Assembly: GCA_964525525.1 (NCBI GenBank) | Contig: CAZGHD010000001.1 | Coordinates: 5,288-69,287, forward strand | Direction: 5' to 3' | Source: an uncultured Lachnospiraceae bacterium | GTDB lineage: Bacteria; Bacillota; Clostridia; Oscillospirales; CAG-272 | DNA length: 64,000 bases | Shown: positions 33,303 to 42,329 of the stretch, piece after piece | Position numbering within the stretch: the first letter of the stretch is position 1 | How the letters are laid out: each line of letters starts with the position of its first letter | The notes under the pieces: generated by a model | The model's database searches: none | The model's input: only the letters and a program-made list of their open reading frames with translations | What the model was told of the DNA's origin: nothing | Made by a program: the position numbers and the translations under genes

Positions 33303-34889
33303 TTATACTTTTGATGCGTTATAGCTGTTATTGATCGAAAGTATTTTTTCGATCGAAAGGCCGTATTTTTCCGAGATGTCGCGGGCGTAGCTTTTACCGT
33401 CGGGCGGACGGCGGCTGACAAGATACGTTCGTTTTCCCTCGTCAATGCCCATTACGAGATTGTCGGCTTTTGACACCGTATTACCGTAAGAATTTATCTC
33501 GGGAACTTTTTGGGAAAGCCCGTGCAGATGCGTTGCTAATACCCCGCGGCAGCCGATAACTGAAAGCGCGGTGAGTATCTCCTGTGCGATCACTTGCGCC
33601 TCGCTGCTGTCTGTGCTTGAGAGAATTTCATCCATGACGATAAGACTGTTTGCGGTTACGTCCTTCATCATTTTTTGAAGACGGGCGCATTCTTCTCCAA
33701 ATCGGCTAAGATCAACGCTGTTTCCCGAATTTGTCGGAAACTGGGTAAATATGCGGTCTGCGGGGCTGATCGAAATACTTTTTGCGGCAATAGGAAGTCC
33801 GAGTCCGAACATAAGCTGGGCTATTCCTATCGCTTTGACAAATATGCTTTTTCCACCTTGATTAGGACCTGTAAGGACGTAAAGCTTTCCGTTTTCGTCA
33901 AAGGTTATGTCATTTAAGACTATCCTGCAGCTTGCGTCAAGACTTCTCAGATCTACCGCATTTACGGGATTGTACAGCCCGTTTGCGTCAAAGCGTTTTT
34001 CTTCTTTTGGGCAGACCTGCGGGGTGCACAGAGGTAATCCCGCCGCGCGTATAGCTCCCAGCATTTTCGCCGCGCGGTTGATGAATTTTACCTCGGGCAG
34101 AAGCTCAACAAAATGCATCGTGCCGATGTTAAAATACGTGTTCAGCATTTTACGCCATGAGCGGAAAGTACCGCCGACTATCTTGGCAATCGTACCGCCG
34201 AATGCTAAGTTCGAGGCTTGACGCTCTTTTTTAGACATAGCTTTTGAAACGGCAGAGAGCGGCGCTAAAGTTGTCATTTCATTTGAGGAGTCCATCCGCA
34301 TAAATCGGGAAAGAATATCGCCCGAACGGAAGTATTCATCATTTATCGAGACGATTCCCGCCTCGTATGGAAACAGGCTTGCATCGAGATTGATTCCCAC
34401 CGTCAGACTGCGGATGTTCTTGACCGAAAACTCAAGCTGACCGATTCCGTCTTTTAAGGCGGTGAATTCTTTGCTTTCGTATATGTCTTTAACGTATCCG
34501 TAAAGGGAGAGCATCGCACGGGAGGATAGAGAACCGTCACACTCCTTTAATCGCGTATATGAATTTATTACGAGCTCGGTATAAAGCTCAACCTCTTTTA
34601 TTGCGTAAAGCTGAGACTCGTTGTCTGATGCGGAATCGGGTATTTTTCGGAGCTCGTCCACGGCTGAAAGCTGTTCGGTAAGATATTCAAACAATTCGGA
34701 CAGTGCAGGGCAGGCGAGAAAGTCGGAAAACAGCTGTTCGCGGTATTCTATCGTTTGTTCGTCATCTGTGAAATACCGTTCCCATTCGAGTCCGAGAGAC
34801 GTGAGAGCGAGCTCGTTTGCCGCATCTCCGAGAGGTAATGCGGAGACCGATTCGCGCCCCGGCGGGTAAAGTAAAGATAAATTTTTCAT
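33303..34889 (-). CDS. MutS-family (domain V) ABC-type ATPase, with no recognisable mismatch-binding or Smr domain
   Basis: Walker A GPNQGGKSIFVKAIG, Walker B LIVMDEILSSTD, then ATHLH. Confidence 0.75.
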   Translation of the reverse strand: MKNLSLLYPPGRESVSALPLGDAANELALTSLGLEWERYFTDDEQTIEYREQLFSDFLACPALSELFEYLTEQLSAVDELRKIPDSASDNESQLYAIKEVELYTELVINSYTRLKECDGSLSSRAMLSLYGYVKDIYESKEFTALKDGIGQLEFSVKNIRSLTVGINLDASLFPYEAGIVSINDEYFRSGDILSRFMRMDSSNEMTTLAPLSAVSKAMSKKERQASNLAFGGTIAKIVGGTFRSWRKMLNTYFNIGTMHFVELLPEVKFINRAAKMLGAIRAAGLPLCTPQVCPKEEKRFDANGLYNPVNAVDLRSLDASCRIVLNDITFDENGKLYVLTGPNQGGKSIFVKAIGIAQLMFGLGLPIAAKSISISPADRIFTQFPTNSGNSVDLSRFGEECARLQKMMKDVTANSLIVMDEILSSTDSSEAQVIAQEILTALSVIGCRGVLATHLHGLSQKVPEINSYGNTVSKADNLVMGIDEGKRTYLVSRRPPDGKSYARDISEKYGLSIEKILSINNSYNASKV

Positions 34890-35194
34890 ATATATATTCC
34901 TAAAGCTTTTAAAATAAATGTCCGCAGAAAAGCGGCGGATATAAAAGATATTACGTTTATAAAGGCGATCATAAAAACTACGGGTATTGCATTGAATCTG
35001 TAATTTTTAACGTATTTCCAAAACAGGAAATACAGATGCCCGACGCGGACGTAAAGCGGAGCGATTACTGCCGCAAGTGCCGCGTGAAAAGATATAAAAT
35101 AAAGCATCGCCGCAAACGAACTGATCGTGATAAATACTTTTAGTATTTTATGCCACGGAACTAAAATATAGTTTATTCTGTCAGGAGTTTCCAT
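34886..35194 (-). CDS. Small 3-TM membrane protein, translationally coupled to the MutS-family gene
   Basis: Hydrophobic 102-aa product. Its stop overlaps the downstream start as ATGA. Confidence 0.5.
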   Translation of the reverse strand: METPDRINYILVPWHKILKVFITISSFAAMLYFISFHAALAAVIAPLYVRVGHLYFLFWKYVKNYRFNAIPVVFMIAFINVISFISAAFLRTFILKALGIYI

Positions 35195-35196
35195 TT

Positions 35197-35316
35197 TTAT
35201 ATTTTGTTTGCCTTTTCAATAAGAGCTTTAAATCTGTCTGTGTCGCGAATGGGCTCAAGGTCGCGGGTGTTCATCTCTTTGCGGAGACGGTATATGGTCT
35301 TTCCTATAGAATGCAT
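35197..35316 (-). CDS. Possible 39-aa ORF (MHSIGKTIYRLRKEMNTRDLEPIRDTDRFKALIEKANKI)
   Basis: Hand-translated. RBS GAGGTGACCGCA precedes the ATG, and the stop lies 2 nt before the next start codon. It resembles the first helix of XRE-type HTH proteins but is too short for a full domain. Confidence 0.3.
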   Translation of the reverse strand: MHSIGKTIYRLRKEMNTRDLEPIRDTDRFKALIEKANKI

Positions 35317-35429
35317 TGCGGTCACCTCGTTTTCTTTATATTATTGCAGTGCTTTAAGAATATTATATCAAACTGAAAATAAAAAGTAAACAGAGAGAAA
35401 GTAGAGAAAAAACCAACGGCGCGTTGAGT

Positions 35430-35815
35430 TAAGTCAAGACCACCAGCCGTGCCGATGGCTTGCACAAGCCCCCTTGGGGTACTTCACATGCTGAGCCTAT
35501 AGGCTCGTCGAATTATCCGTCACTTGCGGTAGTTGCCCTACTACCACAGATGTGGTAACTATATTAAGCCTCCCTTGTGTAAAGGGAGGGGGACCACGAA
35601 GTGGTGGAGGGATTGTAAGGTAAATAATAAATAGAAAACAATCCCTCAGTCAAAAATCAAAGATTTTTGCCAGCTCCCTTTGCACAAGGGCGCCTCCCGC
35701 TGCGGCGGGAACCGTCTAAAGCTAAAGCTTTTTGGCACCACCGGCACTGCCGATGGTTGTGTAGACAATACGATCTCCGCCCAAACGTGCAAAACGTTCG
35801 GGTGGAGAATTTGTT
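35430..35815. ncRNA. Hairpin-dense non-coding region, candidate structured RNA of unknown class
   Basis: About 14 consecutive short perfect or near-perfect hairpins and no credible ORF. The two G-U pairs I found favour the + strand. The last hairpin (35777-35805, GCAAA loop) is followed by AGAATTTGTTT. Confidence 0.3.
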
Positions 35816-35842
35816 TAGTAAAGAGTACCTTAGATTTTGCGA

Positions 35843-38440
35843 TTACTTATTATCCCTTGCGGCGATGTCAGCTTCGTAGTTTGCTCTGTCCTGAGTGCCG
35901 AGGGCGTTGCGGAAGAGAACTATTCCGGACTCGTCTTCGTCAAAGGTGTATTCTACCGAGCCGTGCCAGCCGTTACCGAGCTCTGTCGGTTCGTAACGGC
36001 GGAACAGTGAATCAGCCACGGGGAAGTAGCCCTCGCCCTTGCCGCGGTAATCGGTCAGCTCCCAGATGCAGTCGAGCTTGCCGTCCTTTCCGTACGGGCG
36101 GGAGAATTTAACTATACCTATCTCGGGTGCAAACCAGTACTCCATCTTGCCGCCGCGATAGCCGTAACCTCCTTCGGGACCGGTAAGATCGAATTTTATG
36201 TGTCGGCAGTTTTCAAACGTTCCCGCTTTGGTTATAACGGTTTCCTCGTCAAGCACGTCGAACACAAGGTGATTGGATTTTCCTTTCCACGTGGGCACGT
36301 TGCGCTCATCGTGATACCCGGGTATCCATTCGTCACTCCATATAGTACCTGCCGCGTCATAGAGAATATCGTAAAGGAAGCTATAGAGAACTTTATAGCC
36401 CTCGTCTCCGCAGTTACCCATATCCTTCCACTCAAAGCTGTATTTTCTGTTGTCAGAAATTTTAACCTTTCCGTCATTTGTGTCAACGTCTATAAGCTCA
36501 AAGAAGTTCCAATGTCCCTTTTCGGTATAACTCGGGTTGAAACCGGGGTCGGTTGCCAATATACGCTGCATTACGTCGGTCGCGATAGCGATATGCACCT
36601 TTTCACGCTTGGTTTTTGCAAGCTCTGCGGCGCGGGCAAGCGGCTTGCTTACGTCTACGATAGCTTCACCACCGTCGTTTTCGGTATAATAACCGCGACG
36701 TACGTGGAGCATATTACCTTTCCATGAATCATCGTAACCGAGATGCTGTACGAATGTGTATGCTTTGACAGTTACGCTGTCGTCGGCAGCGGCGGTTACC
36801 TCAAAGGTGTTTTCCGCTTCGACTATAACTGCGTCGGTGGATTTGGGTGTGTAGCTCCATTTGTTGCCCACAGCGAACGGGAGCATTCCGCTGCCGCCGA
36901 GTATGGTGTAGCTGTCAAGCTCCCATTCATTTGTCTCGTCATAGCGGTTTACGATCTGGTGCACGATACCGACGCCGGGACAGAAGGTGGTATCGCAGAA
37001 TTTAACACCGTATTTTTCACCTTTGAAACGGTAAAGTGAGCAGTTTTCAAATTTTCCTGCAGGGGTATCGACAGTTACGTCGTTTGATACGTAAGTCAGG
37101 GTGCTGTCACCGCTTGTCTTAACGTCGCCCGGCTTCATTTCGGGGTCGTATATAAGACTGTTAAGTCTCGAGCACTGCCAGAAAAGTGATGAGTCGTATT
37201 CGTCTGCATAGCCGCGGTGATAACCCGGCTGTGACCAGAAATAGAGCTTACCGTCGATATACTTATATACCTCGCCCTGAACTCCGAAACGGAATTTTTC
37301 ATAGGGGAGATCAAGCTCGTGCGCTTTTTTCTCCGCGTCGATCGCCGCGAGAGCGTTTGCGTAGTAAACGTCGCTCGGCTCGAGAAGCTCGAGTACCTTG
37401 TTGTATGCATTCATACAGTCCTCGTAATTTTTCTCGTCGCGGGAGTAGCATCCGTACCAGAAGTATGTGTATGCCAAGGATTTTACAAATCCGTTTTCTT
37501 CGAGAAACGGCATCTGCGTATTTTTCATAAAATCAAGGCGTTCTTTGCCGGAATATTTTCCGTGCTCATACGCCATTACCGACTGCATTACATCGTCGTT
37601 ATGGCTATTTAACGCTGCGTCCTTCATTTTAGCAAGAACTTCGTCGTTTCTCTCACCCGGCAACCACCAATATCCTCTCATAAGTACCTCTGCGAGAGCG
37701 TACTGCTTTTCATTTGATTCATCAAGCGCTTCGACGTCCCCAAGGACACGGCGATATTCTTCCTCAAAGCCGGTTATGTCGTCTCTGATCTGCCACAGCT
37801 TGAGCTCCTCGACCTGCCGCATAACGCGTTTTACGAGAGCTTCGTTTTCGTCGTATGTCTTTTCCATAATACCGTATTCCTTTCTCAGTTGTTTCCGCCC
37901 CTCGCACAGACGCCACTTTACCGTCCCTGCCGGCAGGGAAAGGCGCGCGGCTATCTCGGCGACCGAAAGACCTTCAAAGTAATGCAGAGTGACCGCCTCG
38001 CGTATCTTTTCACTCAGTGCTTCAACGGCCGTGTGAAGCTCTGACGCCTGCTCGTCCTTTGACAGATTTGCGATACCGAGCATATCGAGTATTTCGCTAT
38101 TCTCATCGTCTGCAAGCTCAATGCCCGAGAGCAGGTCAAGGCTGATGTCGGGAACGGTACTGCGGTAGTGAGCGACCAGAGTGCGAGCCTTGTTTTTGGC
38201 TATGTGACACACCCAGGAACCGAATTTATTGCGGTCTTTGAGCGAGTCGAGATTGATCCACGCAGAAACGAATGCGTCCTGTGACGCATCCTGCGCGGAA
38301 AATTCGTTTTCGGTCACCTTGTAGGCAGTTCCGAGAACCGAACGCTCGTGACGCAGTACCAGCTCTTCAAACGCGAGCTGATTTCCGAGCAGGGTCAGCT
38401 CTACGAGAACGTCGTCATTGTGTTCCGTGTGTTTTGTCAT
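35843..38440 (-). CDS. ECF-type sigma factor fused to a roughly 670-aa soluble C-terminal extension
   Basis: Residues 1-190 hold sigma regions 2 and 4 (..QDAFVSAWINL..FGSWVCHIAKNKA.., ..LSVAEIAARLSLPAGTVKWRLCEGRKQL). The rest has no TM segment. It comprises a helical W/Y-rich part and then two related beta-rich modules (AGKFENC..PGVGIV..WEL / AGTFENC..PEIGIV..WEL). Confidence 0.8.
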   Translation of the reverse strand: MTKHTEHNDDVLVELTLLGNQLAFEELVLRHERSVLGTAYKVTENEFSAQDASQDAFVSAWINLDSLKDRNKFGSWVCHIAKNKARTLVAHYRSTVPDISLDLLSGIELADDENSEILDMLGIANLSKDEQASELHTAVEALSEKIREAVTLHYFEGLSVAEIAARLSLPAGTVKWRLCEGRKQLRKEYGIMEKTYDENEALVKRVMRQVEELKLWQIRDDITGFEEEYRRVLGDVEALDESNEKQYALAEVLMRGYWWLPGERNDEVLAKMKDAALNSHNDDVMQSVMAYEHGKYSGKERLDFMKNTQMPFLEENGFVKSLAYTYFWYGCYSRDEKNYEDCMNAYNKVLELLEPSDVYYANALAAIDAEKKAHELDLPYEKFRFGVQGEVYKYIDGKLYFWSQPGYHRGYADEYDSSLFWQCSRLNSLIYDPEMKPGDVKTSGDSTLTYVSNDVTVDTPAGKFENCSLYRFKGEKYGVKFCDTTFCPGVGIVHQIVNRYDETNEWELDSYTILGGSGMLPFAVGNKWSYTPKSTDAVIVEAENTFEVTAAADDSVTVKAYTFVQHLGYDDSWKGNMLHVRRGYYTENDGGEAIVDVSKPLARAAELAKTKREKVHIAIATDVMQRILATDPGFNPSYTEKGHWNFFELIDVDTNDGKVKISDNRKYSFEWKDMGNCGDEGYKVLYSFLYDILYDAAGTIWSDEWIPGYHDERNVPTWKGKSNHLVFDVLDEETVITKAGTFENCRHIKFDLTGPEGGYGYRGGKMEYWFAPEIGIVKFSRPYGKDGKLDCIWELTDYRGKGEGYFPVADSLFRRYEPTELGNGWHGSVEYTFDEDESGIVLFRNALGTQDRANYEADIAARDNK

Positions 38441-38529
38441 CTTGCATTTCCTTTCTTTTGCTTTTCCGTCCTACGGAGCGGTCTTTTTGGGGCTTTCACT
38501 TATAAGACTCGGAAAATGAGTAAAAGGTT
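38434..38529. repeat. Direct repeat copy 1: promoter, leader and start codon of the sigma-fusion gene
   Basis: Positions 38484-38529 are identical over 46 nt to 42222-42267. Similarity continues to TTGTCAT (38434-40 = 42195-201), which includes the start codon. Copy 1 has a 22-nt extra segment. Confidence 0.9.
38501..38529 (-). promoter_or_regulatory. Candidate promoter inside repeat copy 1
   Basis: Minus strand reads AACC-N15-GAGTCTTATAAG. The repeat begins exactly at AAC. Whether this is an ECF-type (AAC..GTC) or sigma-A-type (TATAAG) promoter cannot be decided by eye. Confidence 0.35.
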
Positions 38530-38573
38530 GGGTAAAGCGAAAAAAATTTTAGGCTTGGCTCAAAAATATTCTT

Positions 38574-40358
38574 TTACACATATTTACTTGCCTGTAAATT
38601 GAATAGATGTGCATACTTTCCATTCTGCTTCAAAAGCTCAAAATGTGATCCTTGTTCGATAATACGTCCATCATCTATAACAAGTATCTTATCGGCAAGC
38701 GTGGTATTGGAAAGTCTGTGTGAAATCGTAACCGAACTTTTACCTTCGCTCAAATGATAGAGCTGTTCGAAAATTCTATCCTCCGAGATAGGGTCAAGCG
38801 CAGCAGACGGCTCGTCAAGAATCATATATTCGCTATCTTTGAAGTATGCACGGGCAAGTCCAACGAGCTGCCATTGGCCGCCCGAAAGATCTTTGCCGTT
38901 GTCTGCATAGTAGCGTCCAAGAACGCTGTCAAAACCGTTCTCCCAATCCTTGATGACTTCACTTGCGCCGCTGATGTCGCAAGCCTTTTTCAGTTTCTCG
39001 TCATTAAAACGGTTGTCGAAATCCGATAGAGCAATGATTTCTCGTAGCGGCAGACAGTAAGTAACATAGTCTTGAAACAGCACACCAAATACTTTTCGTA
39101 CTGCGTAAACATCATATTCCTTCAAATCCACGCCGTCGAGCTTGATGCAGCCTTCCTCGGGATCATAGAAGCGGAACATCAGCTTGATAATCGTGGATTT
39201 TCCTGCACCATTCAAGCCTATCAGACCAATTTTTTCATGCGGTTCTATGGTAAAGGAACAATCCTTCAGTACATATTGCTCCGCATTGGGATAACGGAAG
39301 GATACGTTGCAGAACTCGATTTTTGGATTATTCGACGGCTTCAAGGTTCCGCTTTTTTCTACCTCGGATTTAATATCCATAAATTCCCGAAGTTCTGTCA
39401 AACGATCATTATCATTTAAAAAAACGTCAATACTATTCATCAGTGTCTGGGTTTGATTTCGTAATCTGGATACTATACTTAAATTATACTGTAAATCACC
39501 TATACCAATTATTTTATGAATTACATCCAATGCAGAAATAGTAATCACTAAAAATTCACTGGACAAATTAATAATCATAATTAGTGTATTGATAATGTTG
39601 TGTTTTATATTTTCGTGAAAATTTATACGGAACAGCTTTTCCCACACTTCATTGCGCTTGTTAAGAAAATATGAGCCTATGTTGTTCAACTTAATTTCAA
39701 ACTGCACATTATTGTCGAAGAATAATCCGCTGTAATAGTCTTTTTTTCGATTATCACGAAGCTGTTGTTTCTCCATCTCCATTCTGTGTTCTGTGTGCTT
39801 TTTATTATACAGAAAATACGGTACCAACAGGAGAAGGGTTGCAATTCCAAGCCACCATTTGTATGTACACACGATTACAAAAGTTGTAATAACGTTGATA
39901 AATGCAGAAACAATATCAAAAAACAACCATGTCATTTGAGTCATAGTTCCGAAATTATTTCGTGCGTGACGAACCTTATCACCCATCTCTGCACTATCAA
40001 AAAAGGCAAGATCCATTCGGGATGTTTTGTCCATCATAACGGCTTCAATATAAAACTGTATTTCAAAACCATATCGCGAGTTTACATACAAATTAAATCG
40101 TGCAAGCATATATATAAGAAGCTGCAATATAAGGTAAATAGCGAGGTTAAAGAAAACTGCTTGGAAATTTCTTGGGACATTTGCTATGCCATTCAATATT
40201 TCTCTCCACAGACCTATATTTATCAAAGGGATTACTGTGGTTGAAAGAAGAATCAATAATTTCATAGAAAAATAGAATTTCGATGCAAAAAAACTGGTTT
40301 TAAACCCAAACCACAAATTCCCAATAATTCCTCTGAAAAAATCATTGATTTTCTTCAT
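38574..40358 (-). CDS. ABC exporter, fused permease/ATPase half-transporter (second subunit)
   Basis: Six-TM N-terminal half. Walker A GLNGAGKST, signature LSGGQWQL, Walker B YMILDEPSAALD, H-loop TISHR. AT-rich coding sequence. Confidence 0.9.
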   Translation of the reverse strand: MKKINDFFRGIIGNLWFGFKTSFFASKFYFSMKLLILLSTTVIPLINIGLWREILNGIANVPRNFQAVFFNLAIYLILQLLIYMLARFNLYVNSRYGFEIQFYIEAVMMDKTSRMDLAFFDSAEMGDKVRHARNNFGTMTQMTWLFFDIVSAFINVITTFVIVCTYKWWLGIATLLLLVPYFLYNKKHTEHRMEMEKQQLRDNRKKDYYSGLFFDNNVQFEIKLNNIGSYFLNKRNEVWEKLFRINFHENIKHNIINTLIMIINLSSEFLVITISALDVIHKIIGIGDLQYNLSIVSRLRNQTQTLMNSIDVFLNDNDRLTELREFMDIKSEVEKSGTLKPSNNPKIEFCNVSFRYPNAEQYVLKDCSFTIEPHEKIGLIGLNGAGKSTIIKLMFRFYDPEEGCIKLDGVDLKEYDVYAVRKVFGVLFQDYVTYCLPLREIIALSDFDNRFNDEKLKKACDISGASEVIKDWENGFDSVLGRYYADNGKDLSGGQWQLVGLARAYFKDSEYMILDEPSAALDPISEDRIFEQLYHLSEGKSSVTISHRLSNTTLADKILVIDDGRIIEQGSHFELLKQNGKYAHLFNLQASKYV

Positions 40359-42145
40359 ATTGCTTTATCCTCCTTTAAAGTATACTTTTCACGCTGGAGG
40401 TTATAGAGTTTTGCGTATAGACCGTCAAGTGAAATAAGCTCGTCATGTGTACCTTCTTCCTTGATTTTTCCATCATCCAGTACGATTATTTTATTTGACA
40501 TACGAGTACTTGAAATACGGTGTGAGATCATAACACCTGTTTTTTTATGTGCTATGACTTCATAGTTTTTAAAAATCTGATCCTCAGCCTCTGCATCAAG
40601 TGCGGCTGACGGTTCGTCAAAAATAATGATGGGAGCGTTTTTGAAATAAGCTCGTGATAACGCAATCTTTTGCCATTGACCCTTTGAAAGCTCGGTACCT
40701 TTGTCGTCAAATTGACGTGTCATAAATGAGTCAATCCCATTTTCAAGTTTGGGACGCAAATCATCATATACACCGCTTTGTATCAATACATTCTGAATTT
40801 CATCGTTATTGTCCATACGTTCAGGTGCGGATAGAGCAATATTTTCTCTCAGTGTAAGCGGATATTGCACAAAACTTTGAAATAATACCGAAAATAAGTT
40901 TCTCACATCCCGTATATCGTAATCCGCCATTGGGTAACCGTTTATCAAAATTTGTCCCGATTCAATTTCGTAAAGTCCCAGCATCAGCTTTATAATTGTG
41001 GATTTACCTGAACCGTTGATACCGACTATAGAGAGCTTGTCACCACGGTTCAGCGTGAAAGAGGCACCTGATAAAACATATTTTTCGGTATAAGGATACT
41101 TGAAATAGACATTTTCAAAGCTAAGAGATTCAAATGTTTCCAATTTCCTCGATTTAATATTTATATCAGGACAATCTAAGGCAAAAAAGGCAAATACTCG
41201 GCCCATTCTTTGCGCTGTCCTCGTATATCCAAATACAATAACATCCAACATGGTTTTGAATGTGTTTGTAGCAGAAAGTGCAAATCCTGTGTACAGCGCT
41301 ACATCACCTATACTTATATCTGAAATCATAGCTTTATAAACGACAAATGCTGTGAATACTATTTCACCAATGCGCATAATTAGTTCCACAGGAAGTGACG
41401 CGAACAGTTTTTTCTTATCGAGTTTTTTGTTTTCTTTTGTAAATTCGTTTTTCTCCGTAAGATATCTGTCCTTTATATTATCAGTAAGATCATACATTCG
41501 TACATCTTTTGCGGGCCAAGCATCGGTTAGCATCCAACGATAATAATTGAATTTTCGTGTATCCGGTGCCGTCTTCATACGCAAATTTTCTGATTTTTTA
41601 TCGAATACACTTCTTAAAATAATAGATGGTATAGTTAATATAAGAAATAACATCGCGAACCAAACATGAAAATTCACAAGAGCAGTGAATGTTACAGCAA
41701 AAGTGTAGGCATATGTTATGACCCGCACAATATTATCCGCCAGATGAACTGCGGCAACCGTAGAATAACGTACATCGGTAACTACATTTTTTCCATTGGC
41801 AGAATCAATAAACGACATTGGAAGTTGGTTCATTTTTGCAAGTACATCCCGTTCATACTGTTCCTGTGCTCTTTCAAATATGGAATTATAGAGCAAAGTA
41901 TGTACACTGTTCATTCCACAAGAAAGAAGAAGAATGGCGATATAAAGACCTATTAAAGAAAGAAGAACCGATAAATTGGGTGAGTACAGGGTTAAATTTT
42001 CTAAAATATATTTCATAACCAATGTGCCGGATAATGTTAATGTAGAACATATCAAGGCAACTATCCAGTAAACCACAACCATATATTTACTGGACTTGTA
42101 CAACAAACCAAATGAGTAGAATATTGATTTAAGGTAAAGTTTCAT
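40355..42145 (-). CDS. ABC exporter, fused permease/ATPase half-transporter (first subunit)
   Basis: Walker A GINGSGKST, signature LSKGQWQK, Walker B IIIFDEPSAALD, H-loop MISHR. ATGA overlap with the second subunit. No N-terminal C39 peptidase domain. Confidence 0.9.
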   Translation of the reverse strand: MKLYLKSIFYSFGLLYKSSKYMVVVYWIVALICSTLTLSGTLVMKYILENLTLYSPNLSVLLSLIGLYIAILLLSCGMNSVHTLLYNSIFERAQEQYERDVLAKMNQLPMSFIDSANGKNVVTDVRYSTVAAVHLADNIVRVITYAYTFAVTFTALVNFHVWFAMLFLILTIPSIILRSVFDKKSENLRMKTAPDTRKFNYYRWMLTDAWPAKDVRMYDLTDNIKDRYLTEKNEFTKENKKLDKKKLFASLPVELIMRIGEIVFTAFVVYKAMISDISIGDVALYTGFALSATNTFKTMLDVIVFGYTRTAQRMGRVFAFFALDCPDINIKSRKLETFESLSFENVYFKYPYTEKYVLSGASFTLNRGDKLSIVGINGSGKSTIIKLMLGLYEIESGQILINGYPMADYDIRDVRNLFSVLFQSFVQYPLTLRENIALSAPERMDNNDEIQNVLIQSGVYDDLRPKLENGIDSFMTRQFDDKGTELSKGQWQKIALSRAYFKNAPIIIFDEPSAALDAEAEDQIFKNYEVIAHKKTGVMISHRISSTRMSNKIIVLDDGKIKEEGTHDELISLDGLYAKLYNLQREKYTLKEDKAI

Positions 42146-42201
42146 TATTTCCTCCTCGAATAATAGCCCTGGTGAATTTTAAAACAACTTATACTTGTCA
42201 T
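42145..42201 (-). CDS. 18-codon relic/leader ORF (MTSISCFKIHQGYYSRRK) starting at the duplicated sigma start codon
   Basis: ATGACAA is shared with the sigma gene start. The TAA stop overlaps the ABC gene ATG as TAATG, and AGGAGG lies inside the uORF. Confidence 0.35.
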   Translation of the reverse strand: MTSISCFKIHQGYYSRRK

Positions 42202-42267
42202 CTTACATTTCCTTTTTTGCGTTTTTGGGGCTTTCACTTATAAGACTCGGAAAATGAGTAAAAGGTT
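42195..42267. repeat. Direct repeat copy 2, upstream of the ABC exporter operon
   Basis: See copy 1. Identical 46-mer plus a conserved block containing the start codon. Confidence 0.9.
42240..42267 (-). promoter_or_regulatory. Candidate promoter inside repeat copy 2
   Basis: Same AACC-N15-GAGTCTTATAAG sequence as in copy 1, placed just downstream of the relQ-like gene terminator. Confidence 0.35.
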
Positions 42268-42280
42268 TGCTTTTTTTGAA

Positions 42281-42329
42281 AAAAATATAAAAAAGTGGAT
42301 CAACTGCTTAAAAAACAGCCGATCCACTT
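42281..42329 (-). terminator. Intrinsic terminator after the small alarmone synthetase gene
   Basis: 9-bp stem AAGTGGATC/GATCCACTT with inner pairing, followed on the minus strand by TTTTATATTTTT. Confidence 0.7.

Follow-up and report, generated by a model that had tools for sequence, protein, structure and literature searches.

Extracytoplasmic function sigma factors with a large, conserved and soluble C-terminal extension in uncultured gut Clostridia

Within bacterial signal transduction no branch is less understood than the sigma factors of the extracytoplasmic function (ECF) group that carry fused regulatory domains; to our knowledge experimental support exists for only three or four types of ECF extension. 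Here a family of such proteins is described starting from one member, which is encoded in a stretch of 64,000 nucleotides (nt) of an uncultured Lachnospiraceae bacterium (assembly GCA_964525525.1, contig CAZGHD010000001.1, positions 5,288 to 69,287), in the following called the window. The gene at 35843–38440 (stop codon included; minus strand, as are all genes, promoters and protein segments of the window given below) is a single intact open reading frame (ORF) of 865 amino acids (aa). Its product consists of an ECF sigma core and an extension of 670 aa, composed of a TPR-like helical domain and two homologous beta modules. No anti-sigma gene adjoins the sigma gene, and two genes for half-transporters of the ATP-binding cassette (ABC) type are located upstream of it.

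The N-terminal part of the protein is a complete ECF core, as an earlier note on this stretch had proposed for residues 1–190. Pfam assigns Sigma70_r2 to aa 27–89 (E 1.2e-11; 38174–38362) and Sigma70_r4_2 to aa 134–185 (E 1e-13; region 4 as a whole, aa 134–190, lies at 37871–38041), and no domain of sigma regions 1 or 3 is among the Pfam matches of the protein. With regions 2 and 4 and without regions 1.1 and 3, the protein is a group 4 (ECF) sigma-70 factor. With 81.4 bits the protein clears the cutoff of 42.9 set for the ECF superfamily model TIGR02937 of NCBIfam; none of the NCBIfam equivalog models reaches its own cutoff. The solved structures nearest to aa 1–195 are AlgU, Escherichia coli sigmaE and Bacillus subtilis SigW (E 1e-18 to 1e-21). 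Across 82 homologous sequences the residues D51, A52, Q54, D55, A56, F57, A60 and W61 as well as F73, W76, A81 and N83 of sigma2 are invariant, and in sigma region 4 at least 90% conservation is reached in 49% of the columns. Where region 2.2 has its canonical acidic DAED motif, as placed by an alignment with SigW (EAED) made by hand, the family consensus has SAED, with S48 more than 90% conserved, and the window protein has SAQD (aa 47–50; 38291–38302, minus strand). In ECF43, control by phosphorylation rests on the loss of the DAED motif (PMC8999054).

No transmembrane (TM) segment is found in the 865 aa, the highest Kyte-Doolittle mean over 19 residues being 1.33; the protein is soluble and therefore cytoplasmic, as had been expected. 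A full-length AlphaFold2 (AF2) model, calculated from 82 homologues, has a mean predicted local distance difference test (pLDDT) score of 86.8 and a predicted TM-score (pTM) of 0.69. For the extension (aa 200–865) the mean pLDDT exceeds 90 in nearly all blocks of ten residues. The extension begins with the TPR-like domain (aa 197–377; 37310–37852), in which nine helices with a pLDDT above 90 occupy aa 202–376, and continues with beta module 1 (aa 378–575; 36716–37309; modelled at aa 383–569), a helical linker (aa 576–631; 36548–36715; helices at aa 573–583, 598–607 and 611–629) and beta module 2 (aa 632–865; 35846–36547), which is modelled at aa 640–851 and ends with a terminal helix at aa 852–864. 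The earlier note had described residues of about 190–380 as helical and resembling TPR repeats, which agrees with the nine predicted helices and with a Foldseek search of the full model. In this search the N-terminus recovers ECF sigma structures, and the helical domain resembles the TPR proteins PilF (2ho1), MamA (3vty) and phage Rap with probabilities of 0.98–1.0. The Pfam match to TPR_2 in the window protein is weak (aa 323–352); matches to TPR_1, TPR_2 and TPR_8 are on record for homologues.

That the tail contains two related modules had likewise been noticed before, at 36905–37078 and 36044–36244. These ranges correspond to aa 455–512 and 733–799, and the motifs quoted for them (PAGKFENC and KAGTFENC, GVGIV and EIGIV, WEL, GN.W) are present. 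The duplication is borne out by BLASTP within the protein (aa 381–620 against aa 621–865, E 4e-5) and by hhalign between the family profiles of module 1 and module 2, drawn from 36 and 32 family sequences (probability 98.8%, E 1.1e-16, 161 columns). The modules are, however, not anonymous, as they had appeared from the letters of the sequence, but DUF3108-like by profile. The profile of module 2 (A3) matches the PDB entries 4fvs_A (E 8e-8) and 3fzx_A (E 1e-5), that of module 1 (A2) matches 3fzx_A (E 5e-4) and 4fvs_A (E 0.011), and the modules have with these proteins the common signature TPAGtF.C ... W[FY]AP.[VI]G[IL]V, whose cysteine is invariant in both modules. For the Pfam family DUF3108_like (PF21347) the window protein reaches 25.4 bits, below the cutoff of 27, and three homologues (P0138, P0169 and P0214) reach 36–44 bits. 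Module 2 modelled alone reaches a pLDDT of 94.4 and a pTM of 0.91. Neither in the full-length nor in the module-only search do the beta modules have a significant Foldseek neighbour, so that their assignment as DUF3108-like is supported by sequence profiles and unconfirmed by structure. The weak neighbours of module 2 are almost all binders of hydrophobic ligands of the SRPBCC/START/Bet v 1 type, and the full-length search lists di-domain ARO/CYC proteins at a probability of 0.8–0.9; binding of hydrophobic ligands by the modules is only a lead that these models offer.

Conservation is distributed unevenly along the tail. In aa 192–260 at least 90% conservation is seen in 49% of the columns of the same 82 sequences, on a par with the sigma core, and the share falls to 21% in aa 261–377 and to 19–26% in the modules. 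In the AF2 model sigma2 is confident, whereas sigma4 and the junction (aa 134–196) only have a pLDDT of 40–67. Such a disordered junction of low pLDDT, which separates sigma4 and tail, would suit an activation by proteolysis, in which the tail would inhibit the core in the manner of a fused, soluble anti-sigma factor until a cut at aa 183–196 frees an active sigma factor of 190 aa; this route has been proposed for the fused groups ECF48/52/53, for ECF115 and for IutY (PMC8999054). For the window family it appears improbable. At its C-terminal end the junction is no free linker, since M192, E193 and Y196 are more than 90% conserved there; neither an anti-sigma domain nor the zinc-binding motif HxxxCxxC is recognisable by Pfam or NCBIfam, no protease gene is conserved nearby, and the known cases are mostly membrane-anchored.

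The fusion is a constant feature of the family. A protein search with the tail only returned 376 proteins, of which the best 120 are nearly all 840–900 aa long and contain sigma regions 2 and 4, apart from the N-terminally truncated P0033 and P0093. Full-length homologues of 840–900 aa are 48–84% identical to the window protein. Among 1.84 billion cluster representatives phmmer found 314 clusters at 50% identity, and in the full-length matches the tail starts at residue 177–200 (about 185), that is after the sigma core. Two apparent stand-alone tails were examined as possible evidence of a split ancestor, and both were rejected, P0033 starting at a contig edge and P0222 being a frameshifted full-length gene. 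A scan of GTDB species genomes revealed the family in more than 80 species-level genomes of uncultured gut and rumen Clostridia, labelled as Oscillospiraceae, Acutalibacteraceae, 'Eubacteriales', Ruminococcus sp. CAG:382 and others, some of which hold two paralogues; the best 80 loci, which were kept, have 36–64% identity and are nearly all matched over the full length. Compared with the 84–86% identical orthologue of the locus L001, the ratio of nonsynonymous to synonymous substitution rates (dN/dS) is 0.18 overall and 0.12–0.27 per domain. Two modules and a length of about 850 aa are the common form. Single-module forms exist as proteins of 577–585 aa (L082 and L084), in P0206 the module follows directly after the core, and proteins of 1050–1130 aa possess three modules or additional C-terminal TPR repeats. 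The fusion is therefore conserved and genuine. That a sequencing error or misassembly joined two genes into the long ORF has only the unusual length in its favour and is excluded: hundreds of independent assemblies, with identities down to 36%, contain collinear full-length ORFs, purifying selection spans the junction, and the split versions that were seen are frameshifts themselves. A frameshift or stop codon dividing the fusion into two genes, which the earlier note had named as a possible refutation, is excluded by the same ORFs.

For the genomic neighbourhood 895 ORFs from 83 loci were called and clustered. Besides the sigma gene itself no ORF family is present in more than 6 of the 83 loci. 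The commonest neighbours are a MutS-domain-V (MutS_V) ATPase and an HTH_3-TPR regulator, which are annotated as such, and, judged by their sequences, ABC ATPases and another sigma fusion of about 530 aa; the gene directly downstream of the sigma gene varies from locus to locus in strand, size and TM content. From the absence of any conserved neighbour family it follows that the family has no linked anti-sigma gene, conserved target or partner; the absence of an adjacent anti-sigma gene, stated before for the window, is confirmed. The family thus has a fused extension that is conserved and longer than 50 aa, and at the same time lacks a linked anti-sigma factor.

Two neighbours of restricted distribution were observed. 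One subclade of five loci has, 18–117 nt downstream of the sigma gene, a gene for a conserved two-TM protein of about 230 aa (L007 8743–9444, L029 8713–9447, L033 8641–9339, L035 6085–6783 and L038 8632–9327). On the metagenome contig L090 a promoter of the family type stands before the gene of a distant homologue, and no homologue is present in the window; the protein is a candidate for a partner or regulon member. Six loci encode, not more than a few kb from the family gene, a second type of long protein (515–556 aa) whose N-terminal sequence is ECF-sigma-like (L017 8750–10384, L018 3069–4616, L026 6393–7967, L029 9593–11263, L041 9363–10967 and L056 262–1845). At least four of the six loci have the related upstream motif AACC-N17-ACTAT/GTCTAT, which in three of them comes with the palindrome GAAAGCTTTC or GAAGCTTC.

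The TPR-like fold right after sigma4 recalls ECF42, and the tail could accordingly be an obligatory activating platform, in which the TPR-like domain and the modules bind partner proteins, and not an inhibitor relieved by a ligand. ECF42 needs its TPR extension for activity, and contact with sigma4 is predicted for the proximal part of this extension (PMC8999054). In the window family the proximal segment is the best-conserved part of the tail, and the two-TM protein that follows the gene in one subclade, together with the family-type promoter of its distant homologue, could be seen as a trace of such a partner. Nevertheless an activating platform of this kind seems unlikely: no partner gene is conserved family-wide, a neighbour of the YCII/DGPF type is absent, the sigma core is without specific similarity to an ECF42 model in NCBIfam, and the larger share of the tail is made up of cavity-type beta modules and not of repeats.

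A motif conserved together with its gene is the classic signature of ECF autoregulation. Of 82 related loci, 73 have the motif CCCAACCTTTT-N13-GTCTTATA with fixed spacing upstream of the sigma gene, at a median distance of 71 nt, and most of the others lack upstream sequence or have one-base variants; the relaxed pattern has only 10 weak matches elsewhere in about 2 Mb on both strands. Its form is ECF-like, with a T-rich −35 element containing AAC and a −10 element containing GTC. In the window an exact match, CCAACCTTTT-N13-GTCTTATA, is located at 38501–38531 in front of the sigma gene, and no sigma70-type promoter is predicted in either intergenic region. In silico the gene is thus predicted to have an autoregulated promoter of the ECF kind (−35 of the AAC type, −10 of the GTC/CGT type). 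Since the motif is kept with the gene down to 36% protein identity, autoregulation is predicted, and the window sigma factor would be expected to recognise the family promoter. An exact-motif scan of metagenome contigs gave 74 matches, mostly in unrelated organisms. Eight sigma genes of the family type were among the genes recovered, as were three short ECF genes unrelated to the family, and the matches in unrelated organisms precede Bacteroidota-type secreted proteins and other short ECF genes. Many family promoters possess a short subclade-specific palindrome right after the −10 element, GAAGCTTC or CAGCAGCTGC (among others in L020, L045, L051, L065, L068, L069, L073, L082 and L084), and the window clade has GTGAAAGCCCCAAAA at this position; the palindrome could be an operator or a 5'-leader element.

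Positive autoregulation, as predicted, bears on the question whether the tail has to do with sigma activity at all. The tail might instead serve to localise the protein, act as a scaffold, or work as an enzyme or carrier; in that case only transcription of the gene, or else an unlinked anti-sigma factor, would determine how active sigma is. Since DUF3108 has no known function, no contact of sigma core and tail can be demonstrated in the AF2 model and no regulon was found, such a role is conceivable; however, we assign little probability to it. A positively autoregulated sigma factor without a brake is unstable, tail and core are strictly co-inherited with no free-standing tails in the 1.84 billion representatives, and the helices next to the junction are conserved.

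Ahead of the ABC genes the window carries the promoter once more (42239–42269, one mismatch to the motif). A promoter duplication had been suspected earlier, and it is real: the 46 nt at 38484–38529 are repeated exactly and in direct orientation at 42222–42267, including the second promoter copy, and are followed by a copy of 32 nt, 84% identical, of the leader, the ribosome binding site (RBS) and the start (ATGACAA). Altogether the duplicated segment comprises 38434–38529 on the sigma-proximal side, as delimited by the repeats and by alignment with orthologous upstream regions, and on the upstream side 42195–42267 with promoter, leader, RBS and ATGACAA (repeat families D2 and D7 and alignment), both on the minus strand. 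The sigma-proximal copy carries in its leader a 23-nt insert, GACCGCTCCGTAGGACGGAAAAG (38464–38486, minus strand), part of which can form a small hairpin; neither the ABC-proximal copy nor L001 has this insert. Behind the upstream copy follows a leader ORF of 18 codons (42145–42201; translation MTSISCFKIHQGYYSRRK*), which opens with the sigma gene's own start (MT..), uses its RBS and first three codons, and ends in a TAATG where its stop overlaps the start of the first ABC gene; this overlap suggests translational coupling. The ABC genes encode half-transporters of 596 aa (ABC1, 40355–42145; GC content 36%) and 594 aa (ABC2, 38574–40358), overlap by 4 nt and both have an N-terminal ABC_membrane and a C-terminal ABC_tran domain by Pfam, which is the make-up of a heterodimeric ABCB-type exporter. 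In NCBIfam the pair matches models of MsbA, HlyB and bacteriocin exporters, all below their equivalog cutoffs. An intrinsic terminator of the upstream RelA_SpoT gene (42293–42329, minus strand; a 17-bp stem followed by a T-run) should isolate the ABC-proximal promoter copy from read-through, and no terminator is predicted between ABC2 and the sigma gene.

The ABC pair is peculiar to the window lineage. L001, the closest relative, is syntenic with the window on both sides of the sigma gene, with IF2, MetH, MtnA-like, ThiF and RelA_SpoT upstream and an HTH_3-TPR gene, an ORF of 102 aa and a MutS_V ATPase gene downstream, and contains a single promoter only and no ABC genes. A second promoter copy is present in none of the 82 other loci. 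The insert has a GC content of 36–41% between flanks of 46–50%. Homologues of the pair with 64–75% identity (L161–L164) stand at the end of radical-SAM/peptide clusters, in which two AMP-binding enzymes are encoded together with a PP-binding carrier, a radical-SAM enzyme and a small Cys-rich peptide (40–52 aa); the clusters look like gene sets for an uncharacterised peptide natural product, contain no ECF motif, and are represented in the window by the exporter pair only. Two candidates were rejected in this context. A conserved association with ABC genes was suggested by L012 and L072, whose ABC pairs belong to a different subfamily (24–34% identity) and come after a MarR-like coding sequence. 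The assumption that L018 with its sigma gene and L161 with its ABC pair are one contig failed, as BLASTN found no shared sequence. We read the ABC pair as a lineage-specific insertion of an orphan peptide-type exporter, probably acquired horizontally and wired by duplication and insertion. The simplest reading of the duplicated promoter is sigma-dependent expression of both the sigma gene and the ABC pair. Of the earlier proposal that the protein gates its own transcription and that of the neighbouring exporter, the family promoter before both remains, while the link to the ABC genes is lineage-specific and absent from L001 and the 82 other loci.

Downstream of the sigma gene the window has about 650 nt without a credible gene, followed by an ORF of 102 aa for a membrane protein that is coupled to a MutS_V ATPase gene, a pair which is not conserved beside family members. 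In this pair (33303–35194, minus strand) the ORF with three TM segments overlaps the start of a protein of 528 aa, in which MutS domain V is the only MutS domain and which has weak NCBIfam similarity to MutS2 and to the reactivase ATPase KamC. In 6 of the 83 loci the MutS_V ATPase is met again close to the sigma gene of the family. PADLOC reports no defence-system match for the sigma factor, the MutS_V ATPase or the 102-aa ORF, and only generic ATPase matches for the ABC proteins. At 35197–35325 (minus strand) an ORF of 42 aa (MTAMHSIGKTIYRLRKEMN...) is the N-terminal remnant of an HTH_3 regulator of 373 aa with faint TPR matches; the regulator is intact at the same position in L001 (10745–11866) and has by this comparison been lost in the window lineage. 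Between the sigma stop codon and a terminator at 35413–35427 lie about 415 nt (35428–35842, minus strand) which are GC-rich and hairpin-dense; in L001 the same terminator is found about 50 nt after the stop. The fold of this segment has a z-score of −9.1, with a minimum free energy of −179.7 compared to −129.7 kcal/mol for shuffled sequences. It has no copy in any of the fetched loci, only a hairpin piece of 49 nt matching a replicon of Vescimonas fastidiosa, and Rfam contains no matching RNA family, neither for the whole window at the gathering threshold nor for 35150–35950 at an E-value threshold. The segment is probably a cluster of palindromic elements of the REP type in the 3' untranslated region of the sigma gene, less likely a structured RNA.

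Taken together, we favour with moderate confidence an ECF sigma factor that is autoregulated, cytoplasmic and independent of an anti-sigma factor, with the fused tail as its regulator, the proximal helices as the coupling element and the modules as input. The core of sigma2 and sigma4 (the N-terminal 190 residues) would direct RNA polymerase to the family promoter (−35 CCCAACCTTTT, −10 GTCTTATA) and, acting on its own promoter, cause positive autoregulation. The tail of 670 residues would regulate the core in cis, coupled to it by the conserved TPR-like segment after sigma4, and the two DUF3108-like modules, of which one to three exist across the family, would bind a cytoplasmic ligand, probably a hydrophobic one, or a partner protein. 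In the window genome a foreign ABC pair was inserted upstream of the sigma gene with duplication of the promoter, the RBS and the first three codons; from this insertion and duplication it is predicted that exporter and sigma gene are both driven by the window sigma factor. That the tail gates sigma activity is a reasonable assumption because of the precedent of ECF41, ECF42 and ECF238 (PMC7826278, PMC8999054).

Several points weigh against this interpretation. The structure prediction proposed in the earlier note gave a confident model of the extension, but with a pLDDT of 40–67 for sigma4 and junction no docking or autoinhibitory interface can be claimed, and no predicted contact in the AF2 model ties the tail to sigma activity. 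An unlinked anti-sigma factor may exist. The −35/−10 consensus also stands upstream of a few unrelated short ECF genes, so another ECF factor could read the family promoter, and neither the other loci nor the motif scan of metagenome contigs delivered a convincing regulon member besides the sigma gene itself. The ABC insertion is known from a single assembled contig. In the Foldseek search of module 2 against the PDB there is no match with E ≤ 0.001, the best TM-score is 0.33, and 4fvs and 3fzx are not in the top 50. Furthermore, DUF3108 of Gram-negative bacteria occurs in exported and outer-membrane proteins, and its fold is without known function or ligand (PMC4364669).

A more far-reaching proposal goes beyond an autoregulated sigma factor governed by its tail and is, in our view, possible if doubtful: the proteins would be a new class of cytoplasmic one-component sigma factors, in which tandem DUF3108-like barrels sense a hydrophobic molecule or a modified peptide and the TPR-like segment switches the core, and in which duplication of the sigma factor's own promoter, RBS and start codon recruited an orphan exporter of the radical-SAM-peptide type. 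If this were true, the window would catch the evolution of a regulon in progress, the sigma factor and the exporter would form a self-contained resistance unit for sensing and export, and a first function would be given to the DUF3108 fold. Independent of this proposal, the family adds to the ECF extensions a far larger, modular and soluble type, built from a domain without known function, and it is widespread in uncultured gut Clostridia, whose transcriptional regulators are essentially unstudied. As sensor, output domain and target promoter are known and compact, the system can be tested directly in a heterologous host and could become an orthogonal switch. The duplication of the promoter together with the insertion is a clean natural example for the wiring of a new gene into an ECF regulon.

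Extensions found on ECF sigma factors were compiled before. Casas-Pastor et al. count 19 ECF groups whose members bear a C-terminal extension (PMC7826278), and in ECF41, ECF42 and ECF238 fused C-terminal domains regulate where anti-sigma factors are absent (PMC7826278, PMC8999054). A soluble tail of 670 aa consisting of a TPR-like domain and tandem DUF3108-like modules is not described in these two papers, and in literature mentioning DUF3108 no link to a sigma factor was found. The earlier statement that known extensions are much shorter is right for ECF41 and ECF42 (about 100–200 aa; the ECF42 extension has about 200 aa) and for the SnoaL-like extensions of ECF56, ECF205, ECF294 and ECF295 (120–150 aa); it does not apply in the same way to ECF48/52/53, whose extensions with TM helices reach up to 400 aa, or to ECF57 with its WD40-like repeats (PMC8999054). 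ECF262 of the Casas-Pastor 2021 classification bears a regulatory extension of uncharacterised mechanism and is represented by SFB89493.1 of Ruminococcus albus (PMC8999054, Table 2). Some metagenome-assembled genomes of the window family are labelled Ruminococcus as well, which is a likeness by description only. Among ECF sigma factors that control ABC exporters for antimicrobial resistance, ECF258 is described as associated with ABC transporters in Firmicutes (PMC7826278, Table 2); an ECF promoter before an ABC exporter operon next to the sigma gene is the feature shared with the window. However, the ABC association of ECF258 is conserved and goes with a DUF4179 anti-sigma factor, whereas the ABC pair of the window is a one-off of a single lineage.

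With ECF42 (Sven_0747 of Streptomyces venezuelae, ECF-10 of Pseudomonas putida) the window protein has in common a soluble core without an anti-sigma factor and a TPR-type helical domain directly after sigma4, whose proximal part is thought to talk to the core (PMC8999054). The ECF42 tail has about 200 aa and consists of TPR only, while the window tail of 670 aa combines a TPR-like domain, a quarter of the tail, with two DUF3108-like modules. In addition, a YCII/DGPF neighbour is typical of ECF42 and no such family is among the top clusters of the 83 loci, and ECF42 belongs to Actinobacteria and Proteobacteria, the window family to uncultured gut Clostridia. ECF41 (SigJ of Mycobacterium tuberculosis, Ecf41 of Bacillus licheniformis) is similar in that within one polypeptide a fused fold of the small-molecule-binding type replaces the anti-sigma factor, and in its autoregulated ECF-type promoter. 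It differs by a single SnoaL-like domain of about 100 aa, in contrast to the tandem DUF3108-like domains and the intervening helical domain of the window protein, in which the SnoaL family has no Pfam match at E up to 0.1. Finally, both modules are related at the profile level, including the signature, to DUF3108/YmcC-fold proteins (PDB 3FZX and 4FVS; PF11306 and PF21347). For the YmcC fold 3FZX is cited, and DUF3108 genes are described as encoding outer-membrane beta-barrel proteins (PMC4364669). The known members are single-domain proteins of the exported or lipoprotein type from Bacteroidota and Proteobacteria (PMC4364669), whereas the modules of the window family are cytoplasmic, arranged in tandem and fused to a sigma factor.

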